Assembly (NCBI GenBank): GCA_016184365.1 | Contig: JACPCW010000110.1 | Coordinates: 28,611 to 92,610, forward strand | Length of the DNA: 64,000 nucleotides | Direction: 5' to 3' | Source of the DNA: Candidatus Rokuibacteriota bacterium | Lineage (GTDB): Bacteria; Methylomirabilota; Methylomirabilia; Rokubacteriales; CSP1-6 | In this document: piece after piece, positions 297-32,933 of the stretch | Layout of the letters: the number at the start of each line of letters is the position of its first letter | Position numbering within the stretch: position 1 is the first letter of the stretch | Translations under genes and position numbers: made by a program | Notes under the pieces: generated by a model | The model's input: the letters and a program-made list of their open reading frames with translations, nothing else | Database searches by the model: none | What the model was told of the DNA's origin: nothing

Positions 297-308
297 ACTG
301 GACCTCTC

Positions 309-1331: not shown

Positions 1332-1332
1332 C

Positions 1333-3425: not shown

Positions 3426-4121
3426 CTACCGCGCCCCCGCCTGCCGCAGGAGCTCCACCATCGCGGCGTAGCCGCGCCCGCGCGCGAGCGCCAGCGGCGT
3501 GCGCCCGTCGCGATCCGCGAGGCTCACGTTCGCGCCGGCCTCGACGAGCGCCCGCAGCGTCTCGGTGTGGCGCCGGCCGCCGTCGCCGAGCACGATCGAC
3601 TCGATCAGCGCCGTCCATCCGAGGTTGTTGACGTGATCGAGCGGTGCGCCCGCGCGGATGAGCGTCCGCACGACCGCCACGTGGCCGAGATGCGCGGCCG
3701 CGATCAGCGCGGTGCCGTCGTACCGGCTCGTGACGTTCCGGGGACTCGCGCCGAGCGCCAGCGCCGCCGTCAGCGTCGGCACGTCGTTCGCGACGGCCGC
3801 GATGGTGACGGCGTCGTAGCGATCGCCGTCGAGCGCGTTGGGATCGGCGCCCGCGGCCACGAGCGCGCGCATCGCGTCGTGGTGGCCGCCATGCGCGGCG
3901 ACGTGCAGCGGCGTACGGCCGCGCGCGTCGCGGACGTCGGCGTGCGTGCCTCGGCCGGCGAGCCGCGCGATCTCGGCCGCATCGCCGCGCGCGGCCGCCG
4001 CGAGCAGGCCGGTATAGCTCGCCCTCTCGCCGTCGGACGGCGCGACCTGCGCCGCGGCGCTGAGCGGTGCGGCCGCGACGAGCACCACGGCGGCGATCCG
4101 TGGGAGCGGGGGTCGGATCAC
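3426..4121 (-). CDS. periplasmic ankyrin-repeat protein
   Basis: GTG start overlaps the mak stop (GTGA). Signal peptide ([25 protein letters not shown]) is followed by ~5 ankyrin repeats (..GRTPLHVAAHGGHHDAMRALVAAGADPN..). Confidence 0.7.
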   Translation of the reverse strand: MIRPPLPRIAAVVLVAAAPLSAAAQVAPSDGERASYTGLLAAAARGDAAEIARLAGRGTHADVRDARGRTPLHVAAHGGHHDAMRALVAAGADPNALDGDRYDAVTIAAVANDVPTLTAALALGASPRNVTSRYDGTALIAAAHLGHVAVVRTLIRAGAPLDHVNNLGWTALIESIVLGDGGRRHTETLRALVEAGANVSLADRDGRTPLALARGRGYAAMVELLRQAGAR

Positions 4122-5470
4122 GCGGCGAGCGCCGCGACCGCGAGGCGCAGGCCCTCGACCGGAATGCCGAGCCATTCCGGCCGGTGGCTCGCCTCGTAGA
4201 CCACCTCGTATGCGGCCTTCTCGATGACGAACACGGCGACGGCGCGCGCGAAGCCGGTCTCGCTGCGCGGCACGAACGCCGCGTCGTGCGCGACGCGCCG
4301 GTAGCCGCGCACGAACGCCACGGAAGCGACGTCGCGCCATGCCGTGGCGCGCGCGTCGCCGGGATCCGGCGCGGCCGTGACGCCGGCATAGTCAATCGAC
4401 CGCAGCATCCCGGCGACGTCGCGCAGCGGGCTCGTCTTTTGGCGCCGCTCCTCGAGCGGCCGGAGTGGCTCGCCCTCGAAATCGAGGAGCACCCAGTCGT
4501 CGTCGGCGGCGCGATAGAGCGTCTGCCCGAGATGGAAGTCGCCGTGATGGCGCGTCTTCGCGCGGCCGAGCAGCGCGCCGAGCGCCTCGCGCACGTCGGG
4601 CGCATCGGGAATCCCGCGCGTCGGCGCGGCCGCGGCGGCGGTCGCGATCTGCCGCTGCACGTCGTTGGCCCACCGGGCGATGTCGGCCGGCGCGATCGGC
4701 TCGGGCGCGAACGCCGCGTCGCCGGTGACCGAGGCGAGCGCGACGTGCAGCGCCGCCGTGCGTTCGCCCAGCCGCTCGAGCGCGCCGAGCGGCACGGCGG
4801 CGACCGCGGCGAGGCCGTCGCGGTCGTCGGGGCGGGCCGGCACGCGCCCGAAGACCTCGCGGAGCCGGTCGACGACCCAGGCCCACCCGTCGTCGGCGCC
4901 GGTGACGAGCTCGTGCGCGACGACCAGCGTCGACGTGGCGCCGTCCGCGTCCCGGTATTCGACGTGGCCGTAGAGCCGCGGCGCATGCGTGAACGTCGTG
5001 CGCTCCGTGAGGAAGCCGGTGATTTCCTGCTCGGGATTCGGCCCTGCCGCGAGGCGGCGAAAGTGCTTGAGGATCGCCACGTCGCCGAGCACGACCGACG
5101 TGTTGCTCTGCTCCCCGGACAGACGCCGCGCCCGGAGCGCGGTGCCGTGGGGCACGCGAACCGCGCGCGTTGCGTGGCCGACGATCGCCCCCTGCTCGCC
5201 GCCGATCCGCCCGCTGTCGCGGATCAGCGCCAGCAGCGCCGACGGATACTCGCCGCCCTCGAGCGCGTCGGTGATGTCGCCGCCCGGCGCGAGCGGGATG
5301 GCGTACCGGTCTTCCGAGGCGTCGTCGAGCCGGAGGCGCACGATCGCGAGCATGACGTCGCCGACGCTGATGCGGTCCTCGACCTGCACGCGCGCGATGC
5401 GATGCGCTTTTCCGGCAAACCAGCGCTGCGCGCTGATCCACGCGGCGAGCCGCTCGGAGTCGGGAATCAC
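4118..5470 (-). CDS. mak: maltokinase (maltose 1-kinase)
   Basis: 451 aa. Pep2/Mak-like N-terminus (..[14 protein letters not shown]..) and kinase motifs ([16 protein letters not shown]). GTG start overlaps the treS stop (GTGA). Confidence 0.85.
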
Positions 5471-7140
5471 ACGGCCGTCTCCTCGATGCCATAGCGCACC
5501 GGACCACGATCGCGCCGCTCCAGGCGGAACCAGTAGTAGCCGTGCGGGCCGAGCGACAGGAAGTACGGCGTGTCGCCGACGGGCGGAAACCGCGTCTCGC
5601 CGAGCAGCTCGACCGGCGTGGCGCCCTGGTGGGCGCGCAGGTCGAGCTCGACGGGCTGCGACCGCTCCGAGAGATTGGCGACGACCAGGATGGCGTCGTC
5701 CTCGAAGCGGCGGATGAACGCGAGGACCGTGCCGTTCCGCGGGCGCAGGAACTCGATCGTGCCGCGCCCGAACGCGCCGCTCTGCTTCCGCACCGCGATC
5801 ATGCGCTTCATCGTGTTGAGCAGCGACGACGGCTGCCGCGACTGCGTCGCGACGTTGACCGCCTGGTGGCCGTAGACCGGGTCGTTGACCACCGGCAGGT
5901 AGAGGCGCGCCGAATCGGTCGTCGAGAAGTCGGCGTTGCGGTTCGACGACCACTGCATCGGGGTGCGCACGCCGTTGCGATCGCCGAGGTAGACGTTGTC
6001 GCCCATGCCGATCTCGTCGCCATAGTAGATGATCGGGCTGCCCGGCAGGGTGAGGAGCAGCGCGTTCAGCAGCTCGACGCGCCGGCGGTCGTTGTCCATC
6101 AGCGGCGCGAGCCGGCGCCGGATCCCGAGGTTGAGCTTCATCTGCGGATCCGACGCGTACGCGTAGTACATGTAGTCGCGCTCTTCGTTGGTGACCATCT
6201 CGAGCGTCAGCTCGTCGTGGTTCCTGAGGAAGAGGCACCACTGGCAGGCGGGCGGGATCGCCGGCGTGTGCGTGAAGATGTCCGTGATCGGCAGGCGGTC
6301 CTCGCGGCGGACGGCCATGTAGAGCCGCGGCATGAGCGGGAAGTGGAACGCCATGTGGAATTCGTCGCCGTCGCCGAAGTAGGGACGCACGTCTTCCGGC
6401 CACTGGTTGGCTTCCGCGAGCAGGATGCGGTCGCCGCCGTACTCGTCGTCGATGACGCGCCGGAACACTTTCAGGATGTCGTGCGACTCCGGCAGGTTCT
6501 CGCAATTCGTCCCTTCGCGCTCGATCAGATACGGCACGGCGTCGCACCGGAAGCCGTCGAGGCCGCGGTCGAGCCAGAAGCGCATCACGTCGAGCACCGC
6601 GGTGCGGACGGCCGGGTTGTCCCAGTTCAGGTCAGGCTGATGGCTGAAGAACCGGTGCCAGTAGTACTGCTTGCGCACCGGGTCCCAGGACCAGTTCGAC
6701 TTCTCGGTGTCGATGAAGATGACGCGCGCGTCGCGATACCGCTGGTCGGTGTCGCTCCAGACGTACCAGTCGCCGTACGGCCCGGTCGGGTCGGTGCGCG
6801 ACGCCTGGAACCACGGATGCTGGTCGGACGTGTGGTTCATCACGAGGTCCGCGATGACCCGCATGCCGCGCGCGTGCGCGCCGTCGAGGAATTTCTGGAA
6901 GTCCTCGACGGTGCCGTAATCCGGATGGATGCCCCGGAAATCGGCGATGTCGTACCCGTCGTCGCGGAGCGGCGAGGGGTACATCGGCAGGATCCACAGG
7001 CAGTCGACGCCGAGCTCCTTGACGTAGTCGAGCGAGGCCGTCAGCCCGGCGAAGTCACCGACACCGTTGCCGTCGGCGTCGAAGAACGCCTTGACGTGGA
7101 CCTCGTAGAAGATCGCGTCCTTGTACCAGTCCTGTGACAT
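5467..7140 (-). CDS. treS: trehalose synthase (maltose alpha-D-glucosyltransferase), GH13
   Basis: 557 aa starting [21 protein letters not shown]13 catalytic motifs present (..[10 protein letters not shown].., ..[11 protein letters not shown]..). Confidence 0.9.
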
Positions 7141-7204
7141 TTCAGATGGGGGGCCCCGACATGGCCCCCCATACCCCCCCGCGCTCGGCGCGCCCCAGGG
7201 AACC
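7141..7204. repeat. 64-bp GC-rich hairpin repeat, copy 1 (glgE-treS spacer)
   Basis: Stem TGGGGGGCC/GGCCCCCCA with 7-nt loop, plus a second inverted repeat GGGAACC..GGTTCCC. About 85% identical to 22629-22692. Confidence 0.7.
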
Positions 7205-7275
7205 TGTGGCACGCCTCGGGTTCCCGCCCGGACCTGTTGCCGAGACTCGCCGCCCGGCGCTTCCCGGTTTCCCTG

Positions 7276-9172
7276 TCATCGACGCCTCAGATGGAAGATC
7301 TGCGCCGGGTCCACGGCCGGGTCGAGCTTCACGTAGCCGCGCCGTCCGCGCCACTCCCACATCTGGTCGGACAGCAGCTCGTGCATCACGTACGTCTCGT
7401 CGTCCCGCAGCCCGAACCGCTCGATCGGCACGTCGACGACCGACTCGCGCGTGCGGGTCACGTCGAAGCTCGCCGCCACGAACACGGCGTCGTCGCGCTC
7501 CGGCGTGATCTTGCCGTACCACAGGACGGCATGCCGGATGCGCGCGCCGGATGGCGTTCACCCGCGTGATGAAGTCGACGAGGTTGCCGGGCGCCTGCCA
7601 GTCGCGCGCCTTGATCTCGTACTTCTCCGAGTCGAGATACTCCTCCGAGCCCGGCTCGCGCGGTACGTTCTCGCAGAGCTCGTAGCCGGAGTAGATGCCG
7701 TACAGCGACGAGAGCGTCGCCGCGAGCACGAGACGCATCTTGAACGCGGGCCGGCCGCCGAGCTGCAGCGTCTCGTGCAGGATGTCGGGCGTGTTCGGCC
7801 AGAGGTTGCCGCGGAAGTAGTCGCTGACCGGCGGCGTGGTGATCTCCGTCAGGTATTCCGCGAGCTCGCGCTTCTCGTTGCGCCACGTGAAGTACGTGTA
7901 GGACTGCGAGAAGCCCGATTTCGCCAGCACCTTCATCATCTTCGGCCGCGTGAACGCCTCCGCGAGGAACACGACCTCGGGATGCTCGTTCTGGATCTCG
8001 CGAATCAGCCACTCCCAGAACCGCACCGGCTTCGTGTGCGGGTTGTCGACGCGGAACGCGCGCACGCCGTGCGCGATCCAGAAGTCGACGATCCTCCGCA
8101 TCTCCTTCCACAGCGGCTCGGGATCGTCGCCGTAGAAGTTGACCGGGTAGATGTCCTGGTACTTCTTCGGCGGGTTCTCCGCGTACTTGATCGTGCCGTC
8201 GGGGCGGTGGAAGAACCATTCGGGGTGCTCGCGCACGTAGGGATGATCCGGCGAGCACTGGATCGCGAAGTCGAGCGCGACCTCGAGCCCGAGCGCGCGC
8301 GCCGTCTCGACGAAGCGATCGAAGTCGTCGATCGTGCCGAGATCGGGATGCACGGCGGCGTGGCCGCCTTCCGGGCCGCCGATCGCCCAGGGGCTTCCGG
8401 GCTCGCCGGGTTGCGCGACGAGCGCGTTGTTCCGGCCCTTGCGGTGCGCGCGGCCGATCGGATGGATCGGCGGCAGGTACACCACGTCGAAGCCCATCGC
8501 CGCGGCCCGGCGCAGCTGGAACTCGGCGTCGCGGAACGTCGCGTGCTTGCCCGGCGTCTGTCCCGAGCGCGGGAAGAACTCGTACCACGCGGCGAACCGC
8601 GCCCGCTCCCGATCGACGACCACGTCGAACTCGCGCGCCCACGTCGCGTCCGTGCGGTCGAGCGTGCCGTCCATCAGCGCGGCCAGCGCCGGCTCGCGCG
8701 CCGCCGCGACGGCCGCGGCCTGCTCGGCGCCGGCGAACCGCGCCGCATAGCCTTCGAGACCCTGGCGCACGCCGCCGCTCGCGCGGCCGGCGGCCGCGCG
8801 CAGGTGCTGGGCCCCTTCGAGCAGCTCGCTGCGGACGTCCTGCCCGGCGGCCACGCGCTTGTCGAAGTCCGCGAGCCACGAGCGGAAGACGTCCGTGACC
8901 GCTTCGATGGTGAACACGTAGCGCGAGTTCTCCGCGACTCGGAAGGCGCCGGCCCAGCGGTCGTTGTCGACGAACCGCATCGGCGTCTCCTGCCACGTGT
9001 CGGCGTTCCAGCGCCGGAACTTCAGGAACGCGAGGAGGTGGTCGTGGCCTTCTTTGAAGATGTCGGCCTGCACCTCGAAGAGGTCGCCGACCTCGCGCTT
9101 CACGGGGTACCGGCCGGCATCGACGGTCGATGAGACGGCTTCGATCACGATGCTCTTCTTCGGATCCTTCAT
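7276..9172 (-). CDS. glgE: alpha-1,4-glucan:maltose-1-phosphate maltosyltransferase, with apparent frameshift/indel near 3' end
   Basis: ATG at 9172 (MKDPKKSIVIEAV..) runs to ..RVNAIRRAHPA at ~7540, after which that frame becomes Arg-rich nonsense. The conserved GlgE C-terminus (..YGKITPERDDAVFVAASFDV..YVKLDPA..) continues in the +1 frame and ends at 7276. The ATG overlaps the stop of the upstream GT gene (ATGA). Confidence 0.8.
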
Positions 9173-10419
9173 CTCCACCTTTCCGCGAGGTACGGCTTCT
9201 GGCGTTCGAAGGCGACCGCGACCTCGTCCAGCAGCGCTTCCGTCGCGTCGGCGCTCCGCGGCTCGGCCTCGAGGACGAACGCGGCGGTGCGGCCGAGGTA
9301 GAGCGGCACGAGCGACCGCAGCAGGTGGTCGCGATGCACCACGTCGTAGTGAAAGCCGAGCGCGAAGTCGTAGACGACCCGCGCCCACAGGTCGTTCGGA
9401 AACCGGAATCGCGTGCCGTCGCCGGCATCGAGCCCCAGGACGTCGCCGAGCGTGTCGGGCGCGAGCACGTGCTCCCAGATCGGCAACAGGTCGCGCACGC
9501 CGAGGCGAAAGCCGTCGAGCATGCGCGCCACGTCGACGCGCGCGGGATCGACGCCGAGCTTCGCCGCGGTGCCGACGTCCGGCACGGGCTCGCTGCCCCG
9601 GACCGCGAGCCACAGGTCCTCGTGCGTGTGCATCACGCCGAAGATCGCGCCGAGCGTCTGCGCCACCATCGTCGGCAGATCGTTCGAGCGCGCCGTCGAG
9701 CGGACGACGCGCGGACCGAGCCAGGCTTCCCAGACCGCGAAGCCGTCGGCCACCGCCGTGCCGAACATCCACAGGTCGGTGACGTCGCGACGGAACCCGC
9801 CCCAGCGCGGCTGCACGAGGATGTGCTCGACGAGCCGTGCGGAATACGCCTGGTGGCCGGCGAACGGCTGGTGCAGGCGACGGCCGTACAGCATCCGGAT
9901 CAGCGGCGCCACGATCAGGTTGGTGATCGTGCCTTCGTACCGGTGCCGCGCGTACGCCCCGTTCACGAGGTCGGCCTTGCCCGCGAGCACGGGCTGCGCA
10001 AGGCGCGCGATCCATTCGTCCCGGATCGACACGACGTCCGCTTCCACGATCACCAGCGCGCGGGCGCCGAGGCGGTGCGCGGCCGTGAAGACGGCCGCGA
10101 GCGCGTCGCCGCGGCCCGGCACGCCGTGGAACGGCACGGTCAGCCGCTCGGCGAGCGGCGTCGGGTGCTCGATGCGCACGACGGGCAGCGCGGTCGACGT
10201 CACGGCATGCGCGGTGCCGTCGGACGACCCGGCGTCGGCGTTGAGAATCACCGCCGTCGCGCCGTCGAGGTGGCGCTCCACGCCGGCCGCGACGGCTTCG
10301 GCGACGACTTTGGCCGTCGCGGCGTTGTTGTACGTGAGGAGAGCGATCGCGACGCTGCGCGGTCCGAGCGTCGCGAGCTCGGCGTCGACGCGCTCGCCGA
10401 GCGCGACGGCGTGCGGCAT
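9169..10419 (-). CDS. GT-A fold (GT2-like) glycosyltransferase, function unknown
   Basis: GT2-like N-terminus (..IALLTYNNAATAKVVAEAV..ILNADAGSSDGT..). Start uncertain: ATG at 10419 or upstream at 10560. Coupled to glgE. Confidence 0.6.
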   Translation of the reverse strand: MPHAVALGERVDAELATLGPRSVAIALLTYNNAATAKVVAEAVAAGVERHLDGATAVILNADAGSSDGTAHAVTSTALPVVRIEHPTPLAERLTVPFHGVPGRGDALAAVFTAAHRLGARALVIVEADVVSIRDEWIARLAQPVLAGKADLVNGAYARHRYEGTITNLIVAPLIRMLYGRRLHQPFAGHQAYSARLVEHILVQPRWGGFRRDVTDLWMFGTAVADGFAVWEAWLGPRVVRSTARSNDLPTMVAQTLGAIFGVMHTHEDLWLAVRGSEPVPDVGTAAKLGVDPARVDVARMLDGFRLGVRDLLPIWEHVLAPDTLGDVLGLDAGDGTRFRFPNDLWARVVYDFALGFHYDVVHRDHLLRSLVPLYLGRTAAFVLEAEPRSADATEALLDEVAVAFERQKPYLAERWR

Positions 10420-10470
10420 GTCGAGCCGGACCACGGCTTCGCCGGGGGCCGGCGAGCGTGTGGGGGTCTG

Positions 10471-10520
10471 GGGGCCGTCGTGGCCCCCAGTGCGATCGAT
10501 TCGCCGGTCCCCGGGGGACC
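10471..10520. repeat. two GC-rich hairpins in treT-GT spacer
   Basis: TGGGGGCC-GTCGT-GGCCCCCA and GGTCCCC-G-GGGGACC perfect inverted repeats. Confidence 0.45.
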
Positions 10521-10570
10521 CGGGGCCCGGCCCTACGTTCGGATCAAGCGCGTCGGCCATCAGATCCCCG

Positions 10571-11761: not shown

Positions 11762-12426
11762 CACCCGCGGCCCCCGTCGAGCGTGCCGTCGACGAGCGCG
11801 AGCACCCGGGCCCGAATGCGCTCGAGGTTCGTCATGTAGGTGTCCAGGCGCTCGATCCGCGTGGCGAGCTCCGGCAGGTGCAGCGACCCCCGGATCCATT
11901 CAGCGAAGTCGTCGGTGCGGCGCCGCAGTCGCGCGCGGGCCTCGACCATGTGCACGTAGATCGCGCTCGCGTCGACCTCGGCGAGCGCGGTGCGGAACTC
12001 GGCGAGCGTGAACGCCGGGCTGCCGAGCGCCACCTCGACGATGTGCGCCTGCTGGAAGTAGAACGGCTCGCCGAACTCGACGCGCGGCACCGTCGACAAT
12101 CGCGCGAGGTGGTCGTCGATGATGCCGCAGAGGTCGTCGCGGAGCTCGTCGAGGCTGCGCGAGTCGAACGGGTTCACGACGCCGAGCCGCTCGGCGAGCG
12201 CCATGTCCCGCACGTGGACCGCGACCCAGGCGGCGAAGTCGTTGCCGTACGGCGTGCTCATCGGCCGATGCCGCAGGAAGTAGCCGTGCGTGTGGTAGTA
12301 GACCGAATCGAGCGGCACCTCTTCGAGCCGGTCCATCAGCTCGCGCTCGTCGAGCGCGCGCCGGCCCACGACCTGCCGGAGCTCGACGCACCCCATGAAC
12401 TGGAACGAGGACTCGGCGCGGGTCAT
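11761..12426 (-). CDS. conserved hypothetical protein (treT-associated DUF)
   Basis: 221 aa starting MTRAESSFQFMGCVELRQ... ATG overlaps the treY stop (ATGA) and its stop overlaps the treT start. Confidence 0.55.
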   Translation of the reverse strand: MTRAESSFQFMGCVELRQVVGRRALDERELMDRLEEVPLDSVYYHTHGYFLRHRPMSTPYGNDFAAWVAVHVRDMALAERLGVVNPFDSRSLDELRDDLCGIIDDHLARLSTVPRVEFGEPFYFQQAHIVEVALGSPAFTLAEFRTALAEVDASAIYVHMVEARARLRRRTDDFAEWIRGSLHLPELATRIERLDTYMTNLERIRARVLALVDGTLDGGRG

Positions 12427-15302: not shown

Positions 15303-17689
15303 GCCGGCAGCGGAAGCGCGAAGCCGAGCAGCTCCGCGAGGGGGGTGAGCGACGCGTGCGCTTCGGGCCGCGCGCGCCACAGGTCGAAGAACTCGTTCTG
15401 CACGACCCAGAGCTCGAACGGCGCGTCGATCGTGCGCGCGCCGGTGACGATCGCGACCGCTTCCGCGATGCGCGCGGTCGTCGGCTCGGCACGGACGCGG
15501 TCGAGCGCGTCGTGGATCGCGCGGGTCACGGCGTCTCTCGCGGGCTCGAGCTCGAGGCGCAGGCCGAGGCGGCGGGCCTCCTCGGCGACTTCGAGCGCGG
15601 GCGCCGGAATCCCGCCGAGCGCCGGGGCGCCTCGCAGCAGGGCGACCGTCTCCAGCTCCATGACGTGTCGGCCGATCAGCGACAGCGTCTCCGGAATGGG
15701 CGCGTCCGCCGCGCGCAGGTAATGGACGAGCTTGCGGCTCTCGTCCCAGATCCGCCGGTACGTGGCCTCGTGCCGCTCGAGCACGGCCGCGGTCACGTCC
15801 GCGAGCACGCGGCGGCGTTCCTCGAGGAAGAGGTCGGGCAGGCCGAAGGACGGCCCCGGGAAGGCGTCGTCCATCGCGCGGACCATGTCGGCCATGCTGT
15901 GCCGCTGGTACCGGCCGAGCAGGTCCGTCTGGAGCGCTTCGTACGCCGCGCGGTCCTCGAACGGCCGGACGCCGCACGTGAAGTCGTGGCCGCCGAAGTG
16001 GAGGACGCCGTAGACCGACTCGCGCGCGTCCCCGGTGACTCCGGAGCTGACGCGGACGTGCGCGATGCGCAGCGCCGTCGTGTCGTAGGCCTCGCGCTCG
16101 TCGTCGAGACGCTCGATGCGCCAGGCGTAGACCCGGGCGTCCTCCGGCCGCTCCTCGAACATCCCGCTGATCGCGTAGTGGGCGATCACCCGGCGAACGT
16201 CGACCACGGCCGGGCGGACGTACCGCCGGTAGACGGCGGCGCCGTCGGGCAGGTCCCGGTCGTTCGTGGCGGCCGCGCCGAGGCGGCGGACGAAGTCCGC
16301 CTCGAGCGAGGGGCCGCCGAGGTCGTGCAGGTACTGCATCGCCATGGCCGCGTATTTCAAGATCTGGACCGGTTCCAGGCCCGCCAGCTCGTCGAAGAAC
16401 CAGCCGCACGACGTGTACATGAGCAGCCGGTTGCGCTGGAGCTCCAGGAGCCGGCGCGCCTCCACGCTGCCGCCGGCGTCCAGGGTGGCGCGCTGGTGGC
16501 CGCTCAGGAAGTCGGCAACCCGGCCGGGCGAGCGGTCGAGGATGACGTCCACGTAGCGGTCGCGTGCCGCCCACGGGTCTTTCAGGATCTCGCCGGCCCG
16601 GGCCTCGTAGAAGGGGTCGATCTGGTCACGGAGCCAGTCGAGCGCCTCGCGAAGCGGCCCGCGCCAGCGCTGGTGGCTGTCGCCGCGGACGCGGCATCCG
16701 CAGTCCGCCCGCCACCGCTCGACGCCGTGCGAGCAGCTCCACGAGGTCAGCTCGTGGAGCTCGACCTCGTGCGTCGGCGGGTGCCCGGCGAGGAACGCGC
16801 CGTAGTTCGTGAGGTCGGCGACCGCCTCGCGCTCGATCTGCTGGATGGCGGCGGCGAGCGCCATCTCGCCGAACCGGCTGTGATGGCCGTACGACTCGCC
16901 GTCGGTGGCGCAATGGACGAGCTGCGGCCAGTTCCGGGCGTCGGAAAACCCGCCGCGCAGACGTTTCACGAGGTTCTCCCCGCGGTTCAGGGCGTCTCCG
17001 AACGCGATCGCCCGCGACACGGGACCGTCGTAGAAGAAGAGCGCCAGCGACTGGCCGCGCGGCCCGCGCCAGAGATAGGCGCGGCTCGGATCGATCCGCT
17101 CCCCGACGTCCGTCCACGCCTCGGCGCCGATCGGCCGGATCCGCCACGCCTGGTGCGGGGCGAGGACCGTGAACCGGAGGCCGTGATCGGCCAGGATCGC
17201 GAGCGTTCCGTTGTCGACCGCGGTCTCCGGCAGCCACATGCCTTCGGGCTCGCGCCCGAAGCGCGCGCGGAAGTCCGCGAGGCCCCACCGCACCTGCGTC
17301 ACGCGGTCGCGGCGCGTCGCGAGCGGCATGATCATGTGGTTGTAGACCTGCGCCATCGCGTTCCCGTGGCCGTCGCGCGCCGCGGCGCTCGCGCGGTCGG
17401 CCGCCACGATCTTCGCGTACACGCTACTCGCGTGCCGGTCGAGCCACGTCAGCAGCGTCGGGCCGACGTTGAACGAGATCTTTTCGAAGTTGTTGACGAT
17501 GTCGTGGATGCGGTTGCGGTCGGTCACGCGCCGCGCGGCGGTGTTGGGCGCGTAGCACTCGGCGGTCACGCGGGCGTTCCAGTCGTGATACGGCGCGGCC
17601 GAGTCCTGCACCTCGACGGCTTCGAGCCACGGGTGCTCGCGGGGCGGCTGGTAGAAATGACCGTGAATGACGATCGAACGGGCGGGCAA
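15299..17689 (-). CDS. GH57 family glycoside hydrolase (DUF3536-type, alpha-glucan active)
   Basis: GH57 motif HGHFYQPPREHPW at the N-terminus. TTG start at 17689. GGAGGAG RBS sits in the 3' end of glgC. Confidence 0.75.
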   Translation of the reverse strand: MPARSIVIHGHFYQPPREHPWLEAVEVQDSAAPYHDWNARVTAECYAPNTAARRVTDRNRIHDIVNNFEKISFNVGPTLLTWLDRHASSVYAKIVAADRASAAARDGHGNAMAQVYNHMIMPLATRRDRVTQVRWGLADFRARFGREPEGMWLPETAVDNGTLAILADHGLRFTVLAPHQAWRIRPIGAEAWTDVGERIDPSRAYLWRGPRGQSLALFFYDGPVSRAIAFGDALNRGENLVKRLRGGFSDARNWPQLVHCATDGESYGHHSRFGEMALAAAIQQIEREAVADLTNYGAFLAGHPPTHEVELHELTSWSCSHGVERWRADCGCRVRGDSHQRWRGPLREALDWLRDQIDPFYEARAGEILKDPWAARDRYVDVILDRSPGRVADFLSGHQRATLDAGGSVEARRLLELQRNRLLMYTSCGWFFDELAGLEPVQILKYAAMAMQYLHDLGGPSLEADFVRRLGAAATNDRDLPDGAAVYRRYVRPAVVDVRRVIAHYAISGMFEERPEDARVYAWRIERLDDEREAYDTTALRIAHVRVSSGVTGDARESVYGVLHFGGHDFTCGVRPFEDRAAYEALQTDLLGRYQRHSMADMVRAMDDAFPGPSFGLPDLFLEERRRVLADVTAAVLERHEATYRRIWDESRKLVHYLRAADAPIPETLSLIGRHVMELETVALLRGAPALGGIPAPALEVAEEARRLGLRLELEPARDAVTRAIHDALDRVRAEPTTARIAEAVAIVTGARTIDAPFELWVVQNEFFDLWRARPEAHASLTPLAELLGFALPLPA

Positions 17690-17696
17690 CGGCGTG

Positions 17697-18938
17697 TTAC
17701 ATCTCCTCGAGACCCAGGAGGAACTCGCGGCGTCCGCCGCGCGGGACGACGACGATGCCGGACCCGTCGACGTGGTAGCGCCGCCGGTCGGCCTCGCGGT
17801 CGAAGCCGATCTCGGTGTCCGCGGCGACGATGTTGTAGCGGTCGACGATCGCGCGGCGCAGGCGCGCGCCCTTCCCCACCGTCGTGTGGTCCATGATGAT
17901 CGAGTCCTCGATGTGCGCGCCTTCGTTGACCCACACGCTCCGGCCGAGGATCGAGTTCCGCAGCGTGGCGCGCTTCACGAGCGACCCTTCCGCGACCTGC
18001 GTGTTGTCGATGTCCGAGCCGATGAAGCGCGCGGCCGGACCGGGATGCACGCCGGTGCGGATCGGCCAGTAGCGGTTGTCCAGGTCGAAGCGCGGCGATT
18101 CGCCGAGCAGGTCCATGTGCGCGTCCCAGTACGACTCGATGCTGCCCACGTCGCGCCAGTACCCGACTTCCTCGTACGGCTTGATGCCCGGCACCTCGTT
18201 GGCCGTGAAGTCGTACGCGAACACGCGGCCGCCCGGCACGAGCTCCGGAATGATCGAGCGGCCGAAATCGTGGTCGGTCGACCGCCGCGCGTCGGCGAGG
18301 AGCGCGTCGACCAGCGCGCGCCGGCTGAAGAGGTAGTTCCCCATCGAGACCAGCGAATGCGCCGGGTCGTCGGGCATGGACTTCGGCTCGCGCGGCTTTT
18401 CGTCGAACTCGATGACGCGCGACGCGCGGTCCACCGCGAGCACGCCGAACGACGAGGCCTCGCGGATCGGGACGTGGCGCGCCGCGACCGTGACGTCCGC
18501 GCCGGTCTCGCGGTGGAACGACACCATCTGCGCGACGTCCATCCGGTACACGTGGTCGGCGCCGAACACGGCGATGACGTCGGGGTTGAAGTCGTCGACC
18601 AGGTTCAGGTTCTGCAGCACGGCGTCGGCGGTGCCGCGGTACCACGCGGGACCGAAGCGCATCTGTGGCGGCACGACGGCGACGAAGTAGTCGGGGACGA
18701 TGCCCGTCGTGCGCCAGGACAGGCGCAGGTGCTCGATGAGCGACTGGGACTTGTACTGGACCAGGACGTAGAGCGACAGCATCTCGGAGTTCACGAAGTT
18801 CGACAGCACGAAGTCGATGATGCGGTAGCGCGCGCCGAACGGCACCGCGGGCTTCGAGCGTTCGCGGGTGAGCGGATGCAGGCGCTCGCCCTTGCCGCCC
18901 GCCATGATCATCGTCAGAACGCGCGGGCGCCGGGCCAT
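17697..18938 (-). CDS. glgC: glucose-1-phosphate adenylyltransferase
   Basis: 413 aa with ..MIMAGGKGERLHPLTRERSKPAVPFGARYRIIDF.. and a C-terminal LbH domain. Confidence 0.9.
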   Translation of the reverse strand: MARRPRVLTMIMAGGKGERLHPLTRERSKPAVPFGARYRIIDFVLSNFVNSEMLSLYVLVQYKSQSLIEHLRLSWRTTGIVPDYFVAVVPPQMRFGPAWYRGTADAVLQNLNLVDDFNPDVIAVFGADHVYRMDVAQMVSFHRETGADVTVAARHVPIREASSFGVLAVDRASRVIEFDEKPREPKSMPDDPAHSLVSMGNYLFSRRALVDALLADARRSTDHDFGRSIIPELVPGGRVFAYDFTANEVPGIKPYEEVGYWRDVGSIESYWDAHMDLLGESPRFDLDNRYWPIRTGVHPGPAARFIGSDIDNTQVAEGSLVKRATLRNSILGRSVWVNEGAHIEDSIIMDHTTVGKGARLRRAIVDRYNIVAADTEIGFDREADRRRYHVDGSGIVVVPRGGRREFLLGLEEM

Positions 18939-18942
18939 GGGA

Positions 18943-20646
18943 TCAGCGCGCGACGATGGCCGCGTTTCCCCAGGCGGGGTCGAGGTCGGGGAAGCAGAAG
19001 TCCTCGCGCTCGAGGCGGCGCAGGAGATCGGCGCCCTCGACGCTCATCGGATCGCCCGCCATGAGCCGGCGCGCCATCTCGCCAAGGCGTTTGAACTCGG
19101 CGTAGTGCTCGGCGACGCGGCGCTCGGCGTAGTCGCGCGCGGCGCCGGTCGTGATGAGGAACTGCCAGTCCGAGGCCTGGAGCAACAGGAGCTCGCGCGT
19201 CGCCTGCGTGATGACGCGCTTCAGCTCGCGCGGATCGTCCGTCGCGTGCGCGAGCAGCTCGACCCACTCCGTCTCGGCGCTGTACACGCGGTCCCACGTC
19301 CATTCGGTGTCCGGGTTCAGCCAGACGCGATGGTCGCCGCCCTCGCCCCACGACCCTTCCGGCAGCGACAGCGTCGTGCGCGCCGGCACGGCCTCGAGCG
19401 CCTCGCCGAGCGTCATCGCCGGCACCTTCGCGCGCGCGAGCTCGCGGGCCACTTCGCCGAGCCACGCCGGCCCCTCGAACCACCAGTGGCCGAACAGCTC
19501 CGAGTCGTACGGCGAGCAGACGACGGCTTCCCCGTCGCGCCGCGCGTCCGCGATCGTGCTCTTGACGAGCTCCGCGAAGTGGCGCGCCTGGAGGTGCACC
19601 TTCTCGCGCGCGACGTCCGGGTCGTAGACCTGCTTTCCGCCGAGATCGCGCGAGGCGTCCGTGATGCGCCAGAACCGCAGGCCGCCCGGGAAATGCTTCT
19701 TGTGGAACTCGAGATAGTTGAACTCTCCGGGATAACCGTGATCGCGGCTCCACACCTGCAGCGTCGTGCGCGGGTCGCGAAAGAACGCCGTCGCGTCTCC
19801 GGTCCCGCCGCGCGACGCCACGCGGTACGACGCGTACGGCGACCGCGGGCCGGCGCTCGACGCCTTCATCGCCGGCGCTCCCGTCATCTCCGGTCCGAGC
19901 GGGAAGTAGTCGCGGTACACGAAGATCGGCGCGCCGGCGGAGAGCAGGTGGGCGTCGGCGACGAAGTACTCGAGGTTGTACTGCGCGAGGAATTCCTCGA
20001 TGCCGGGCCGCATGCGCCGTTCGCGTCCGCTCTCGCGTCCCGTCGGCGGCGTCCATTCGTAGCGCGGGCGATACGCGCATTCGGGCAGCCAGATGCCGCG
20101 CGGTGCCACGCCGAAGTGACGGCGATGCGTTTCGACGGCCGTGCGGAGCTGGAGATGGATCGATTCGTCGCGCGACAGCAGCGGCAGATACCCGTGCGTC
20201 GCGGCGCACGTCATGATTTCCACGTGGCCCGCGCGTTGCAAATCGGCGAACGTGCCGACGATGTCGCCGCCGATGCGACGGTGGAGCTCCCACATCCGCT
20301 CGTAGAACTCTTCCCAGAAGTGGGTGAGGCGGACGAGCTCCTTCTGACCTTCGCGTCCGAAGTGCTCGCGGCTCTCGACGCACGCGCGGCGGACGTTGTC
20401 GTAGTAGAACGAGAGCTCCTTCTGGAATTCGGGCGAGGCGAGCTGCTCGGCGAGGATCGGCGAGATGTTGAGCGTCCACTTCGGCGAGATGCCGTCGGCC
20501 ACCAGCCGATGAATGGTCTCGAGCAGCGGCAGATAGCACTCGAATGCGGCTTCGTTCAGCCAGTCGCTGCCATGCGGCCAGCGGCCGTGATTGACCACCA
20601 TCGGAAGATGGGAGTGGAGGACAAGTGAGAACGGAGACGCCATCAC
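18943..20646 (-). CDS. GH57-type 1,4-alpha-glucan branching enzyme
   Basis: 567 aa starting MMASPFSLVLHSHLPMVVNHGRWPHG.. (GH57 branching-enzyme signature). First gene of the operon. Confidence 0.8.
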   Translation of the reverse strand: MMASPFSLVLHSHLPMVVNHGRWPHGSDWLNEAAFECYLPLLETIHRLVADGISPKWTLNISPILAEQLASPEFQKELSFYYDNVRRACVESREHFGREGQKELVRLTHFWEEFYERMWELHRRIGGDIVGTFADLQRAGHVEIMTCAATHGYLPLLSRDESIHLQLRTAVETHRRHFGVAPRGIWLPECAYRPRYEWTPPTGRESGRERRMRPGIEEFLAQYNLEYFVADAHLLSAGAPIFVYRDYFPLGPEMTGAPAMKASSAGPRSPYASYRVASRGGTGDATAFFRDPRTTLQVWSRDHGYPGEFNYLEFHKKHFPGGLRFWRITDASRDLGGKQVYDPDVAREKVHLQARHFAELVKSTIADARRDGEAVVCSPYDSELFGHWWFEGPAWLGEVARELARAKVPAMTLGEALEAVPARTTLSLPEGSWGEGGDHRVWLNPDTEWTWDRVYSAETEWVELLAHATDDPRELKRVITQATRELLLLQASDWQFLITTGAARDYAERRVAEHYAEFKRLGEMARRLMAGDPMSVEGADLLRRLEREDFCFPDLDPAWGNAAIVAR

Positions 20647-20728
20647 CGAATGCCTTTCCTGATCAGGGCCGGGAGTGCCGCACCTCGTCCGATCGAACGT
20701 CGGGGTCGCTCGCGATCAATTGGACCGT
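20647..20728. promoter_or_regulatory. divergent intergenic/promoter region (GH57-BE operon <-> treZ)
   Basis: 82-bp spacer between divergent start codons. No confident -10/-35 read. Confidence 0.3.
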
Positions 20729-22504
20729 ATGAATCCGCTTGGCGCAAGCATTCGTGAGGGCGGCGTCGCGTTCCGCGTGTGGGCGCCGCGCTGCCGCAGC
20801 GTCGACGTCGTCGCCGACGGGCGGCGACCGATTCCACTCGCGGTCGGACCAGACGGCCTCTTCGAGGTGTCGCTGCCGGCCGTGACGGCCGGCGCGCGAT
20901 ACCAGTATCGGCTCGACGGCGAGCGCTTCCGTCCCGATCCCGTGTCGCGGTGGCAGCCGGAGGGCGTCCACGGCCCGTCCGTCGTCGTCGATCCGCACGA
21001 CTTCGCGTGGACGGATCAGACGTTCCGCGGCCATCCGCGGGCCGAGCTCGTGTTCTACGAGCTGCACGTGGGCACGTTCACGACGGCCGGCACGTTCGAG
21101 GCGATGATCCGCCACCTCGGCGCGCTGGTGGACCTCGGCGTGACGGCGATCGAGCTCCTGCCGATCGCGGAATTTCCCGGCTCGCGCAACTGGGGCTACG
21201 ACGGCGCGCATCTCTACGCGCCGCAGTCGACGTACGGCGGCCCCGCGGGGCTGCGCCGGCTCGTCGATGCCGCTCACCGCGTCGGCCTGTCCGTGTTTCT
21301 CGACGTCGTCTACAACCATCTCGGTCCGGAGGGGAATTACCTCGCCGAGTTCGGACCGTACTTCACGGATCGCTACCGGACGCCGTGGGGCACGGCCGTG
21401 AACTACGACGGGGCCGACGGCGCGGGTGTGCGGCGCCACGTCGTCGAGAACGCGACGTACTGGGCGCGCGAGTTCCACGTCGACGGGCTGCGGCTGGATG
21501 CGATCCACGCGATCTTCGACGAGAGCCCGGTGCACATCCTCACCGAGCTCACCGAGGCCGCGCGGAAGGAGGCCGCCGCGCTCGGGCGACCGTTCTACGT
21601 CGTCGCCGAGTCGCACGACAACGACCGGCGCCTCGTGCTCCCGCGCGAGCAGGGCGGCGTCGGTCTCGACGGCGTGTGGTCCGACGACTTCCATCACGCC
21701 GTGCACGCGCGGCTCACGGGCGAGCACGGCGGGTACTACACGGACTTCACGGAGCCGTCGCTGCTGCCGAAGGCGATCGCGGAGGGCTTCGCGTTCCAGG
21801 GGGAGTTCTCGCAGTACTTCGCCGCGCCGCGCGGCACGCCGAGCGCGGACGTGCCCGGCGAGCACTTCGTCATCTTCGTGCAGAACCACGACCAGGTCGG
21901 CAACCGCGCGCAGGGCGACCGGCTCGGCTCGATCGTGCCGTTCGAGGCGGTGAAGCTCGCGGCCGCGCTGATGTTCGTCGCCCCGGCGCTGCCGCTCATC
22001 TTCATGGGCGAGGAGTACGGCGAGACCGCGCCGTTCCAGTTCTTCACGTCGTTTCTCGACCGCGACCTCGCGGACGCCGTGCGCCACGGACGGACGGCGG
22101 AGTTCAGCCGGTTTGCCTGGCAGGGCGCCGTGCCCGATCCCGGCGAGCCGTCCACGTTCGTGCGCTCGCGCCTGTCGCACGCGCTCGCGCAGGCGCCGCG
22201 TCACCGCGAGCTCCGCGAGTACTACCGCCAGTGGCTGGCGCTCCGCCGCTCGCATCCGGCGCTGGGCAGCCGCGGCAAGGACCGGACGCGCGCGACGCTC
22301 GACGATCCGGTGCTCGTCGTCGATCGCGCCAGCGGCACCGGCGAGCGCGTGCGGCTCGTCGCCAATCTCTCGCGCGAGCGACGGCCGGCGCCGGAGATGC
22401 ATGGCTGGCGCGCGCTGCTCGACAGCGCGGATGCGCGCTGGGGCGGACCCGGCGAACCGGCGCTGGTACCGTTCCACGCCTTGCTCCTCGAAGCGACCGG
22501 GTGA
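20729..22504 (+). CDS. treZ: malto-oligosyltrehalose trehalohydrolase, GH13
   Basis: 591 aa starting MNPLGASIREGGVAFRVWAP. Motifs ..GLRLDAIHAI.. and ..FVQNHDQVGNR... Confidence 0.85.
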   Translation: MNPLGASIREGGVAFRVWAPRCRSVDVVADGRRPIPLAVGPDGLFEVSLPAVTAGARYQYRLDGERFRPDPVSRWQPEGVHGPSVVVDPHDFAWTDQTFRGHPRAELVFYELHVGTFTTAGTFEAMIRHLGALVDLGVTAIELLPIAEFPGSRNWGYDGAHLYAPQSTYGGPAGLRRLVDAAHRVGLSVFLDVVYNHLGPEGNYLAEFGPYFTDRYRTPWGTAVNYDGADGAGVRRHVVENATYWAREFHVDGLRLDAIHAIFDESPVHILTELTEAARKEAAALGRPFYVVAESHDNDRRLVLPREQGGVGLDGVWSDDFHHAVHARLTGEHGGYYTDFTEPSLLPKAIAEGFAFQGEFSQYFAAPRGTPSADVPGEHFVIFVQNHDQVGNRAQGDRLGSIVPFEAVKLAAALMFVAPALPLIFMGEEYGETAPFQFFTSFLDRDLADAVRHGRTAEFSRFAWQGAVPDPGEPSTFVRSRLSHALAQAPRHRELREYYRQWLALRRSHPALGSRGKDRTRATLDDPVLVVDRASGTGERVRLVANLSRERRPAPEMHGWRALLDSADARWGGPGEPALVPFHALLLEATG

Positions 22505-26282: not shown

Positions 26283-26359
<77 letters not shown>

Positions 26360-31236: not shown

Positions 31237-31286
31237 GACCGGGCAGTCGGAACTATAGATTGATCGCCCTGCCTCCCTTCCGCGCA

Positions 31287-31317
31287 TTTTTCCGGTGCGA
31301 TTCCCAGGTTTTTCCGG
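31287..31317. promoter_or_regulatory. direct repeats TTTTTCCGG x2 at 22-bp periodicity in divergent promoter (candidate SARP-binding site)
   Basis: tttttccgg at 31287-31295 and 31309-31317, lying between the SARP start (31236) and the small ORF (31341). Confidence 0.35.
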
Positions 31318-31340
31318 CTCGGCCCGGTACAAGGGGCGCC

Positions 31341-32902: not shown

Positions 32903-32933
32903 CGCCCCGGGGCCGCCGACGAGGAGGCGTGTC

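Follow-up and report, generated by a model that had tools for sequence, protein, structure and literature searches.

The analyzed window is a 64-kb (64,000-nucleotide) stretch of contig JACPCW010000110.1 from a Candidatus Rokuibacteriota bacterium. GC3 frame analysis and ORF mapping located eleven consecutive minus-strand genes at positions 3426–20646 and a plus-strand gene that diverges from them and ends at 22504, exactly matching the minus-strand gene count and the coordinates of a first-pass annotation made from the same DNA. Junction sequences contain 4-nt ATGA/GTGA overlaps at 6 of the 10 operon junctions. ATGA overlaps link GH57-DUF3536 to TreY, TreY to DUF5752, and GT-A to GlgE, and GTGA overlaps link TreS to Mak and Mak to the ankyrin gene; the DUF5752–TreT junction can be read as a GTGA overlap or, alternatively, as a 1-nt TGATG overlap. 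The remaining four junctions are gaps of 4 nt (branching enzyme to GlgC), 7 nt (GlgC to GH57-DUF3536), 1 nt (GlgE to TreS), and 10 nt (TreT to GT-A). The tight packing described in the annotation is borne out, but "almost entirely" overlapping overstates a pattern seen at six junctions, and one gap exceeds the claimed maximum of 7 nt. Given a TGA stop, an [A/G]TGA overlap has a chance probability of ~50%; the cluster is nonetheless non-random, since the frame switches at each junction and the gene order is conserved elsewhere. The proposed starts are anchored by family or structure alignments that begin within ~20 residues of every one and by the GH57 HxHxxQP motif, which opens at residue 9 of gene 3, the gene with the TTG start. 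The gene cluster is a real, tightly packed operon, and its members are probably co-transcribed.

Family models or solved-structure homology back every enzyme that the annotation had named: the GH57 branching enzyme, GlgC, TreY, TreT, GlgE, TreS, Mak, and TreZ. Gene 1 (18943–20643; minus strand, as are genes 2 to 11) encodes a GH57 glycogen branching enzyme of 566 aa from ATG 20643, with a GTG one codon upstream at 20646. It carries the Pfam domains Glyco_hydro_57 (103.6 bits) and BE_C (81 bits) and the GH57 motifs HSHLP, WLPECAY, DSELFGHWW, and ASDWQF. It matches the branching-enzyme models of Thermus and Thermococcales over its full length (484 and 478 bits, respectively), in both cases below the lineage-specific cut-off. 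After a 4-nt gap, gene 2 (17697–18938, 413 aa) encodes the glucose-1-phosphate adenylyltransferase GlgC (NCBIfam NF002023, 565.5 bits against a cut-off of 458; Pfam NTP_transferase and LbH_GLGC).

The GlgE-route enzymes lie at the other end of the operon. Gene 8 (7142–9172, 676 aa), which has an ATGA overlap with gene 7, encodes the α-1,4-glucan:maltose-1-phosphate maltosyltransferase GlgE (Pfam GlgE_dom_N_S, 163.7 bits), and solved GlgE structures (S. coelicolor GlgE) are matched at E = 1e-176. A 1-nt gap precedes gene 9 (5467–7140, 557 aa), encoding the maltose α-D-glucosyltransferase/trehalose synthase TreS (TIGR02456, 930.3 bits against a cut-off of 678.35). Gene 10 (4118–5470, 450 aa), with a GTGA overlap with treS, encodes a Mak/Pep2-type maltokinase that exceeds the Pfam Mak_N_cap cut-off (31.6 bits versus 22) and falls slightly under that of the putative maltokinase model TIGR02457 (328.6 bits versus 375).

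Malto-oligosyltrehalose synthase (TreY, 959 aa; TIGR02401, 946.9 bits against 498.65) is encoded by gene 4 (12423–15302), which has an ATGA overlap with gene 3, and malto-oligosyltrehalose trehalohydrolase (TreZ; TIGR02402, 693.1 bits against 538.8) by the plus-strand treZ gene (20729–22504). The latter is upstream of the operon and divergent from it, as in every related locus reaching that far, and encodes 591 aa from ATG 20729, with alternative in-frame starts at TTG 20720 and GTG 20675. The branching-enzyme gene and treZ are separated by a short divergent control region of ~85 nt (20644–20728). Across 27 related intergenic regions that were compared, two elements are conserved: GAAAGG, the ribosome-binding site of gene 1, and TTGGACCGT, immediately 5' of the treZ ATG; a consensus scan of the control region found no sigma-70-like promoter.

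The earlier function list covered 8 of the 11 minus-strand genes, leaving unnamed the GH57-DUF3536 protein, the OrfY/DUF5752 protein, and a GpgS-like GT-A glycosyltransferase. The first of these, gene 3 (15299–17689, 796 aa), begins with TTG after a 7-nt gap and matches Pfam DUF3536 (340 bits) and Glyco_hydro_57 (62.5 bits). Its catalytic motifs are intact (HGHFYQPP, WLPET, DGESYGHH, and GWFFDE), and no sequence relative was found in the PDB. Two relatives have been partly characterized: one cleaves CNP-maltotrioside only, and 4-α-glucanotransferase activity was suggested for the other. These activities are weak and mutually inconsistent. Gene 3 overlaps the treY start and occupies the position of treX/glgX in other treY-treZ clusters. 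It is a candidate α-glucan-active enzyme.

Gene 5 (11761–12426, 221 aa; ATGA overlap with treY) encodes a DUF5752/OrfY-family protein (Pfam DUF5752, 197 bits) and is a full-length homologue of Thermoproteus tenax OrfY (PDB 4CSO; E = 8.6e-21 by profile and 6.8e-15 by single sequence). The depositors of 4CSO labeled it a "transcription factor," a name implying DNA binding; OrfY may bind DNA accordingly, or it may act on TreT. A TreT-like gene directly follows DUF5752 in all retrieved loci that continue beyond it (L021 and L054 stop at a contig edge). The same succession occurs in 21 of 21 loci outside Rokubacteria, among them loci from Zixibacteria, Acidobacteriota, Ignavibacteriales, Sumerlaeota, and Firmicutes, and OtsB and OtsA come after the pair in 11–12 of the 21. 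In the operon, the partner is gene 6 (10571–11764), a GT4 TreT-type trehalose glycosyltransferring synthase of 397 aa (GTG 11764) or 396 aa (ATG 11761) with 138 bits on Pfam TreT_GT1. It aligns end-to-end with the solved TreT structures 6ZJ4 (T. uzoniensis TreT, E = 1.7e-101) and 2X6Q (E = 4.9e-83), scoring better against Thermoproteus-type TreT than against the Pyrococcus enzyme. The 6ZJ4 depositors name their enzyme "trehalose phosphorylase/synthase." On the GlgM/GlgA_Coryne model, gene 6 scores only 58 bits, against a cut-off of 302.

Gene 7 (9169–10560) encodes a GT-A glycosyltransferase that ends in a helical domain and is 463 aa long when read from ATG 10560. NCBI calls a 421-aa protein from GTG 10434, which would leave a 136-nt gap after the TreT gene; a 10-nt gap is the better reading, because the closest homologue (P0002) shares the N-terminus starting at ATG 10560. 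Predicted hairpins in the GC-rich 136-nt spacer implied by the NCBI call were not significant (z = -1.84). Direct matches are to MGS_GT and GpgS, and they are weak (GpgS, 40 bits against a cut-off of 262). With a profile of the gene-7 family, GpgS structures are matched across residues 28–214 (E = 3e-5), and ~200 C-terminal residues of gene 7 were without match. All top Foldseek matches are GpgS and MpgS, from a model that is poor over residues 153–297. JGI names several relatives "glucosylglycerate synthase," and glucosylglycerate synthase has been described as using ADP-glucose and D-glycerate. The family is large (635 clusters at E ≤ 1e-30); in distant lineages its genes adjoin TreS, OtsA/OtsB, or TreS-Mak/GlgB, and downstream of them lies a mechanosensitive-channel-like gene. 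From one source's automated names, distant GpgS similarity, and gene context, gene 7 is a candidate glucosylglycerate-synthase-like enzyme and, as such, a second candidate consumer of ADP-glucose in the operon.

Gene 7 could instead be something other than an osmolyte synthase: a dedicated glycogenin-like glucosyltransferase that primes GlgE, or a protein that activates a trehalose enzyme without being catalytic itself. GlgE depends on an acceptor, the neighborhood lacks a GlgA gene, and the gene 7 stop overlaps the glgE start; an activating role has a precedent in the T. tenax msc-gt-tpsp operon, where the glycosyltransferase, an unrelated GT4 protein, activates TPSP, and gene-7 relatives occur in analogous GT-msc-otsA-otsB arrangements. 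The T. tenax protein, however, differs in fold (GT-B), and the gene-7 family is widespread without glgE, as in a second rokubacterial clade and in loci L084, L087, and L088. One family member comes after genes for a GpgS-like protein and an MPGP-family phosphatase, and the structures closest to gene 7 are those of synthases that make glycosides of glycerate or phosphoglycerate, all of which makes a primer or activator role highly improbable.

All ten genes in order plus the divergent treZ occur in 16 of ~46 collinear Rokubacteria/Methylomirabilota loci, with GlgC within the operon in all complete ones. The ~30 further collinear loci are fragments, mostly ending at contig edges, and by tblastn summary a few fragments are without one or two genes. 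One additional locus (L083) has the same gene order, and the second rokubacterial clade retains (TreY)-DUF5752-TreT-GT-A-TreS-Mak. The ten-gene operon with divergent treZ is characteristic of Rokubacteria (phylum Methylomirabilota). Many uncultured soil Rokubacteria are among its carriers. Gene 11 (3426–4121, 231 aa; Ank_2, Ank_4, and Ank domains) encodes a small ankyrin-repeat protein and differs in this respect. The signal-peptide-like N-terminus of its product and its GTGA coupling to mak are as annotated, but it does not belong to the conserved unit: tblastn gave no hit in any of 81 related loci, L001 and L083 carry no gene at that position, and orthologues with 72–83% identity are located in unrelated neighborhoods. 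The ankyrin gene is a local, lineage-specific add-on.

The reading that we favor, and consider somewhat better than even, is that the ten-gene operon and treZ fuse three known modules that would move glucose between branched storage α-glucan and compatible solutes. In the supply module, GlgC would provide ADP-glucose, from which the Thermoproteus-type TreT, always paired with its OrfY/DUF5752 partner, would form trehalose with free glucose as the acceptor; the GT-A enzyme would probably draw on the same nucleotide sugar for a second glycoside, most likely glucosylglycerate. In the storage module, TreS would convert trehalose to maltose, Mak would phosphorylate maltose to maltose-1-phosphate, and GlgE would polymerize it into linear α-1,4-glucan, to be branched by the GH57 enzyme rather than by a GH13 one. 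For the return, GH57-DUF3536 probably trims or disproportionates chains, after which TreY and TreZ would free trehalose. The closed glucan/trehalose route proposed in the first-pass annotation is plausible: the loop closes on paper, but the route does not supply the free glucose that TreT uses as its acceptor, and the operon has no gene for producing or importing glucose.

A stricter version of the proposal, in which the cycle is self-contained and GlgA-independent with TreT as the only point at which ADP-glucose enters trehalose and glucan, appears doubtful. The absence of glgA was upheld over the DNA covered: neither the operon nor the other ORFs scanned in the 64-kb window yielded a glgA-like gene, and GT5 GlgA, GlgM-type GT4, and OtsA domains were likewise not found there. 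Complete loci all retain glgC as a member of the operon, and GlgA-less organisms dependent on GlgE are documented. The search, however, covered 64 kb of a multi-megabase genome, and glgA, glgM, or otsA/otsB may be present elsewhere in it; in other phyla, the DUF5752–TreT pair coexists with OtsA/OtsB. Gene 7, a nucleotide-sugar glycosyltransferase gene between treT and glgE, encodes another candidate ADP-glucose user, and therefore TreT is not demonstrably the only entry, as had been claimed; TreT also requires free glucose.

The direction of flux could also be reversed, such that trehalose or maltose is taken in and stored as glucan, with TreT converting trehalose and ADP to ADP-glucose and glucose. 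TreT of Thermococcales is reversible, the reverse reaction has been proposed for Thermococcus litoralis, and TreS-Mak-GlgE could store maltose directly. This catabolic or assimilatory direction is nevertheless improbable. GlgC in the operon argues that ADP-glucose is made rather than salvaged, and without GlgA salvaged ADP-glucose would have no obvious consumer. No transporter gene lies within or adjoining the operon, and gene 6, accompanied by an OrfY partner, is nearer to the Thermoproteus-type enzyme than to the Pyrococcus one; T. tenax TreT has been described as unidirectional.

Set against known systems, the three-module assignment has its closest chemical counterpart in the actinobacterial GlgE pathway with TreY/TreZ recycling (Mycobacterium and Streptomyces; TreS-Pep2/Mak-GlgE-GlgB plus TreX-TreY-TreZ). 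The chemistry is identical, GlgE, TreS, Mak, TreY, and TreZ are clearly homologous, and GlgA-independent use is documented. Unlike in actinobacteria, trehalose entry in the rokubacterial operon would be through a GT4 TreT, not OtsA/OtsB, and without GlgM; branching would be by a GH57 enzyme, not GH13 GlgB; a GH57-DUF3536 gene lies upstream of treY, where GH13 TreX/GlgX is missing; and the genes form one operon that includes glgC, the OrfY homologue, and the GpgS-like GT-A gene. The branching enzyme shares the GH57 plus BE_C architecture and all conserved GH57 motifs with those of Thermus and Thermococcus but scores under the equivalog cut-offs (484 versus 920) and is partnered with GlgE, not GlgA.

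Genes 5 and 6, full-length homologues of OrfY and TreT from the T. tenax unidirectional TreT pathway, lie side by side in this operon, as they do in all related loci examined, with a Thermoproteus enzyme as the best match for gene 6. In T. tenax, too, orfY and treT are reportedly neighbors (Kouril et al. 2008). Here, the host belongs to a mesophilic bacterial phylum rather than being a hyperthermophilic archaeon, and the pair lies inside a glycogen/GlgE operon. For gene 7, the GT-A domain is closest to GpgS, MpgS, and MGS (GT81/GT78), although similarity to GpgS is weak and ~200 C-terminal residues have no counterpart. ADP-glucose use by Persephonella marina Ggs fits the presence of glgC, with the likeness drawn through the names of relatives, distant GpgS similarity, and gene context. 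The GT-msc-otsA-otsB and similar arrangements of gene-7 relatives recall the T. tenax msc-gt-tpsp operon, in which genes for trehalose synthesis are accompanied by genes for a small mechanosensitive channel and for a glycosyltransferase whose catalytic role is unclear; the T. tenax glycosyltransferase is a PimA-like GT-B enzyme (GT4), whereas gene 7 is GT-A, and no msc-like gene was found among the scanned ORFs of the window. Because GlgA-independent GlgE routes and TreY/TreZ recycling have already been described, the cycle itself is not new, and the enzyme families are all known; the novelty is the arrangement, which joins storage glucan to the stress sugar trehalose.

Codon-position GC content and a sliding frame plot resolved 11 consecutive minus-strand genes (3426-20646) plus a single plus-strand gene, divergent from the others, that ends at 22504; the map is identical in its coordinates to the array described in the first-pass annotation. 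Given that the G+C content of the window is ~71%, raw ORF lists were full of spurious frames. All 11 genes share a strand, and their ten junctions span -4 to +10 nt. Junction sequences revealed 4-nt overlaps at six of the ten: ATGA at GH57-DUF3536/TreY, TreY/DUF5752, and GT-A/GlgE (where the GT-A stop overlaps the glgE start), and GTGA at TreS/Mak, Mak/ankyrin, and DUF5752/TreT, the last of which could alternatively be a 1-nt TGATG overlap. The other four are gaps of 1 nt (GlgE/TreS), 4 nt (branching enzyme/GlgC), 7 nt (GlgC/GH57-DUF3536, with a TTG start), and 10 nt (TreT/GT-A). The previously proposed tight packing is thus real but was slightly overstated: it does not consist almost entirely of overlaps, and one gap exceeds the claimed maximum of 7 nt. 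An ATGA or GTGA overlap arises readily by chance; support for an operon comes from two other features, a change of reading frame at every junction and the conserved gene order. Alignments to protein families and structures begin within ~20 residues of each proposed start, and in the TTG-started gene 3, for which no alternative start codon is available upstream, the first GH57 motif (HGHFYQPP) falls at residue 9, making the proposed starts credible. A consensus scan found no sigma-70 promoter-like sites. Terminator-like sites numbered four, with two lying on the minus strand, below the 5.5 expected by chance, and the scan is uninformative on transcript number. By strand, spacing, and conserved order, genes 1-10 are predicted to constitute a single operon whose members would be co-transcribed.

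Pfam, NCBIfam, and PDB sequence searches bore out the enzyme identities that had been proposed, with Mak as a putative assignment, leaving three genes (3, 5, and 7) that the earlier inventory had not accounted for. Gene 1 encodes a branching enzyme with GH57 and BE_C domains and intact catalytic motifs. GlgC (gene 2; NF002023, 565.5 bits versus a cut-off of 458), TreY (gene 4; TIGR02401, 947 versus 499), TreS (gene 9; TIGR02456, 930 versus 678), and the divergent TreZ (plus strand, 20729-22504; TIGR02402, 693 versus 539) each exceed the threshold of the corresponding model. GlgE (gene 8) matches Pfam GlgE_dom_N_S at 163.7 bits and solved GlgE structures at E 1e-176. The putative Mak (gene 10) passes Pfam Mak_N_cap (31.6 versus 22) and falls slightly below the TIGR02457 cut-off (328.6 versus 375). 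For TreT (gene 6), the TreT-specific N-terminal domain is present (Pfam TreT_GT1, 138 bits versus 27), and homology to characterized TreT proteins is full-length, with end-to-end alignments to 6ZJ4 (E 1.7e-101, residues 4-397) and 2X6Q (E 4.9e-83). The same protein reaches only 58 bits on the GlgM/GlgA_Coryne model. Its score on the NCBIfam TreT_Thcocales equivalog (301 bits, cut-off 775) says little about function, as that model is Thermococcales-specific. No GlgA (GT5 or GT3) was found in the operon or among the ORFs scanned across the 64-kb window, and the proposed lack of glgA holds at that scope; glgB, glgP, and otsA were likewise missing from the scanned window ORFs. A GH13 GlgB is absent from the operon as well, which encodes the GH57 branching enzyme instead. 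No protein reached the glgX_debranch cut-off for a GH13 debranching enzyme (TreX/GlgX), with only secondary matches of other GH13 enzymes being retrieved.

All three unaccounted genes belong to poorly understood families. Gene 3 encodes a GH57-DUF3536 protein of 796 amino acids in which every GH57 catalytic motif is intact; a PDB search retrieved no solved relative by sequence. Experimental work covers only two GH57-DUF3536 relatives. A chromogenic maltotrioside, but no polymer, was cleaved by one of them; for the other, 4-alpha-glucanotransferase activity has been suggested. The gene stands upstream of treY, in the position that TreX/GlgX takes in other clusters. Gene 5 encodes a DUF5752 protein of 221 amino acids (Pfam DUF5752, 197 bits versus a cut-off of 23) and is a full-length homolog of Thermoproteus tenax OrfY (PDB 4CSO, E 8.6e-21), which its depositors labeled a transcription factor. 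A DUF5752 structure model built from a shallow alignment was discarded (pLDDT 58); the PDB sequence match to 4CSO made a prediction unnecessary. Full-text searches for literature on DUF5752, or on OrfY with trehalose, returned nothing.

To assess conservation, a DUF5752 alignment was scanned against one genome per species, yielding 80 loci that were then searched by tblastn with the window proteins. In the main rokubacterial clade, 16 loci carry all ten genes in the window order: branching enzyme, GlgC, GH57-DUF3536, TreY, DUF5752, TreT, GT-A, GlgE, TreS, and Mak. In these complete loci, treZ is divergent and the flanks hold gamma-glutamyltranspeptidase and AIR-synthase-like genes, as in the window. 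About 30 further collinear fragments were recovered, mostly cut at contig ends, a few of them without one or two genes by tblastn, and independent gene calls on two further contigs gave the same order. A second rokubacterial clade keeps only (TreY)-DUF5752-TreT-GT-A-TreS-Mak. Outside Rokubacteria (21 loci, named members of which come from Zixibacteria, Acidobacteriota, Ignavibacteriales, Sumerlaeota, and Firmicutes), the sole common genes are DUF5752 and, directly after it, a TreT-like GT4 gene of 40-48% identity. OtsB and OtsA come next in 11-12 of the 21, completing a trehalose module of four genes that is found in several phyla. Because DUF5752/OrfY directly precedes a TreT-like gene across the loci, it emerges from these genomic comparisons as a constant partner of TreT within trehalose gene clusters, a pairing that in turn supports the trehalose assignment of gene 6. 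We found no literature description of a DUF5752/OrfY-TreT pairing in bacteria. An apparent DUF5752-TreT fusion of 641 amino acids at two of the non-rokubacterial loci (L078 and L080) proved to be an artifact of upstream ORF extension in GC-rich DNA. The flanking genes at 297-3422 in the window, which encode the AIR-synthase-like protein, the gamma-glutamyltranspeptidase, and a small protein of ~160-170 amino acids without a family match, are syntenic with the operon across Rokubacteria; the small gene converges on the operon end.

The eleventh gene (3426-4121, minus strand) stands apart from this conserved set. As previously noted, the ankyrin product begins with a signal-peptide-like sequence, and the start codon of the gene overlaps the stop codon of mak, but the proposed coupling is not supported: by tblastn, none of the related loci holds a counterpart. 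In close relatives, mak is directly followed by the convergent small gene and then the transpeptidase gene, and the ankyrin gene sits between mak and that small gene in this genome only. The family (~230 amino acids) is very abundant and unusually conserved, with at least 8,000 matches, all at E<=1e-10. Orthologs of 72-83% identity are very common in metagenomes and lie in unrelated neighborhoods, also in a further rokubacterial genome. Members with a named source belong to Rokubacteria and Betaproteobacteria, again with varied neighborhoods. Judged by its genomic distribution, the gene is a lineage-specific insertion, with no support for a functional tie to the pathway.

The third unaccounted gene, gene 7 (9169-10560, minus strand), encodes a GT-A glycosyltransferase whose C-terminal domain is helical. 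The alignment of this protein shows a conserved E-A/P-D motif. On the NCBIfam model for GpgS (glucosyl-3-phosphoglycerate synthase), it scores 40 bits, where the cut-off is 262, and its catalytic domain bears a distant likeness to GpgS structures (E 3e-5, profile against PDB). When the predicted structure was queried with Foldseek, the top 36 matches were all GpgS, followed by MpgS, at TM-scores of 0.25-0.38; these values are low because the model is good only for residues 10-150 and 300-415. The NCBI call for this gene is 421 amino acids long, implying a 136-nt gap after TreT. The closest homolog has the same N-terminus (MADA.DP.V.PGPGSPG) as the reading that starts at the ATG at 10560; relative to this homolog, the window protein carries a 27-residue (~81 nt) in-frame insertion in a low-complexity, P/G-rich N-terminal tail. 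The stretch at 10435-10560 (minus strand), non-coding in the NCBI gene call, contains two GC-rich hairpins, which are not significant (fold z = -1.84); an in-frame insertion in the putatively disordered N-terminal tail of gene 7 is the better reading.

An exhaustive profile search placed gene 7 in a family of 635 clusters (50% identity) at E<=1e-30, mostly ~420 amino acids long, with fusions to universal stress protein and TrkA-N domains. Several relatives, close and distant, carry the automated JGI name "glucosylglycerate synthase." Neighborhoods were examined for four distant members, three of which (at loci L084, L088, and L089) have a small mechanosensitive-channel-like gene downstream. 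The first of these three has a bona fide TreS gene divergent to it; the second begins the order GT, mechanosensitive-channel-like gene, OtsA, OtsB; the third has divergent GlgB and TreS-Mak fusion genes. The fourth member (locus L087) is preceded by a GpgS-like gene and a gene for an MPGP-family phosphatase, an arrangement like that of gpgS-gpgP-ggs in Persephonella marina. These neighborhoods tie the family to trehalose and osmotic-stress contexts. Gene 7 is a candidate glucosylglycerate synthase (Ggs). The combination of a glycosyltransferase, a channel-like gene, and trehalose genes parallels the msc-gt-tpsp operon of T. tenax, although the glycosyltransferase fold differs there. Glucosylglycerate synthase condenses ADP-glucose with D-glycerate, and the presence of glgC in the operon would fit such a role.

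Upstream of the operon, ~85 nt (20644-20728) separate the branching-enzyme gene from the divergent treZ, whose start is most likely ATG 20729 or TTG 20720. Nearly all related loci conserve TTGGACCGT ahead of the treZ ATG and GAAAGG ahead of the start of the branching-enzyme gene. Near the treZ start, a TGACC-N3-GGTCA palindrome, overlapped by a second one (GGTC-CAAT-GACC), occurs in 8 of 27 related loci (L007, L008, L012, L014-L017, and L038), compared with ~1% of random 64-nt windows, and may serve one sublineage as an operator or as a 5'-UTR hairpin. The idea of an OrfY operator was set aside, the palindrome being confined to those eight loci and missing from the window. Elsewhere in the window, a tRNA-Phe (GAA) at 26284-26359 was the only Rfam or ARAGORN match. 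Three large genes within 28003-36011 are unrelated to the operon: a minus-strand BTAD-AAA-TPR (SARP/STAND-like) regulator of 1,109 amino acids, a plus-strand collagen-triple-helix-repeat protein of 535, and a plus-strand Ig/cadherin/beta-helix protein of 1,025 with beta-helix, PKD, He_PIG, Big_9, and cadherin-like domains. The other scanned ORFs encode TRAP and ABC transporters, a molybdenum hydroxylase, an amidohydrolase, acyl-CoA dehydrogenases, and further unrelated proteins. Between 38094 and 41269 (~3 kb), the longest ORFs (403, 323, 205, and 170 amino acids) had no Pfam match and failed the GC3 coding filter.

Family and structure matches uphold the previously proposed enzyme set and glucan/trehalose loop; enzyme family membership is established, and the flux directions given here are those that the gene content suggests. 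GlgC would make ADP-glucose, which TreT, possibly aided by OrfY, would join to free glucose to form trehalose. The synthetic direction of TreT is favored by three points: gene 6 gives a better score with the Thermoproteus-type TreT than with the Pyrococcus enzyme, T. tenax TreT has been described as unidirectional, and glgC is part of the operon. TreS, Mak, GlgE, and the GH57 branching enzyme would then convert trehalose to branched glucan, from which TreY and TreZ, probably with GH57-DUF3536, would regenerate trehalose. GT-A probably produces a second glycoside. The claim that TreT is the only entry from ADP-glucose is not supported, with GT-A a second candidate user of ADP-glucose in the operon and TreT dependent on free glucose. 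We also considered that GT-A is an ADP-glucose-dependent initiator that makes the first GlgE acceptor, rather than an osmolyte synthase, with OrfY acting as a switch between storage and trehalose. If so, Rokubacteria would both start and elongate glycogen without GlgA, with TreT supplying the precursor of maltose-1-phosphate. We regard this scheme as highly improbable and retain GT-A as a candidate osmolyte synthase.

Rokubacteria are abundant, uncultured inhabitants of soil and groundwater, and the literature searched held no description of their carbon storage or trehalose metabolism, this cluster included. One conserved operon uniting ADP-glucose supply, TreT, the GlgE route, a GH57 branching enzyme, and TreY/TreZ predicts that carbon is buffered between glycogen and compatible solutes, which could plausibly help these bacteria to survive drying and rewetting. 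The operon also provides a testable context for OrfY/DUF5752, whose association with TreT extends well beyond Rokubacteria, for the GT-A family, and for GH57-DUF3536, found where a debranching enzyme would be expected.

Current knowledge of alpha-glucan and trehalose metabolism is not overturned by these results. Actinobacteria are already known to run the glucan/trehalose loop and to use GlgE independently of GlgA, and both have been proposed for some archaea; what is new is the gene arrangement. Known GlgE systems are entered through OtsA/OtsB or GlgM and employ a GH13 branching enzyme, whereas entry here would be by TreT and branching by a GH57 enzyme. Unlike TreX-TreY-TreZ systems, the cluster has no GH13 debranching enzyme. 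It further differs from known GlgE systems in bringing glgC, an OrfY homolog, and a GpgS-like GT-A together within one conserved operon of an uncultured phylum.
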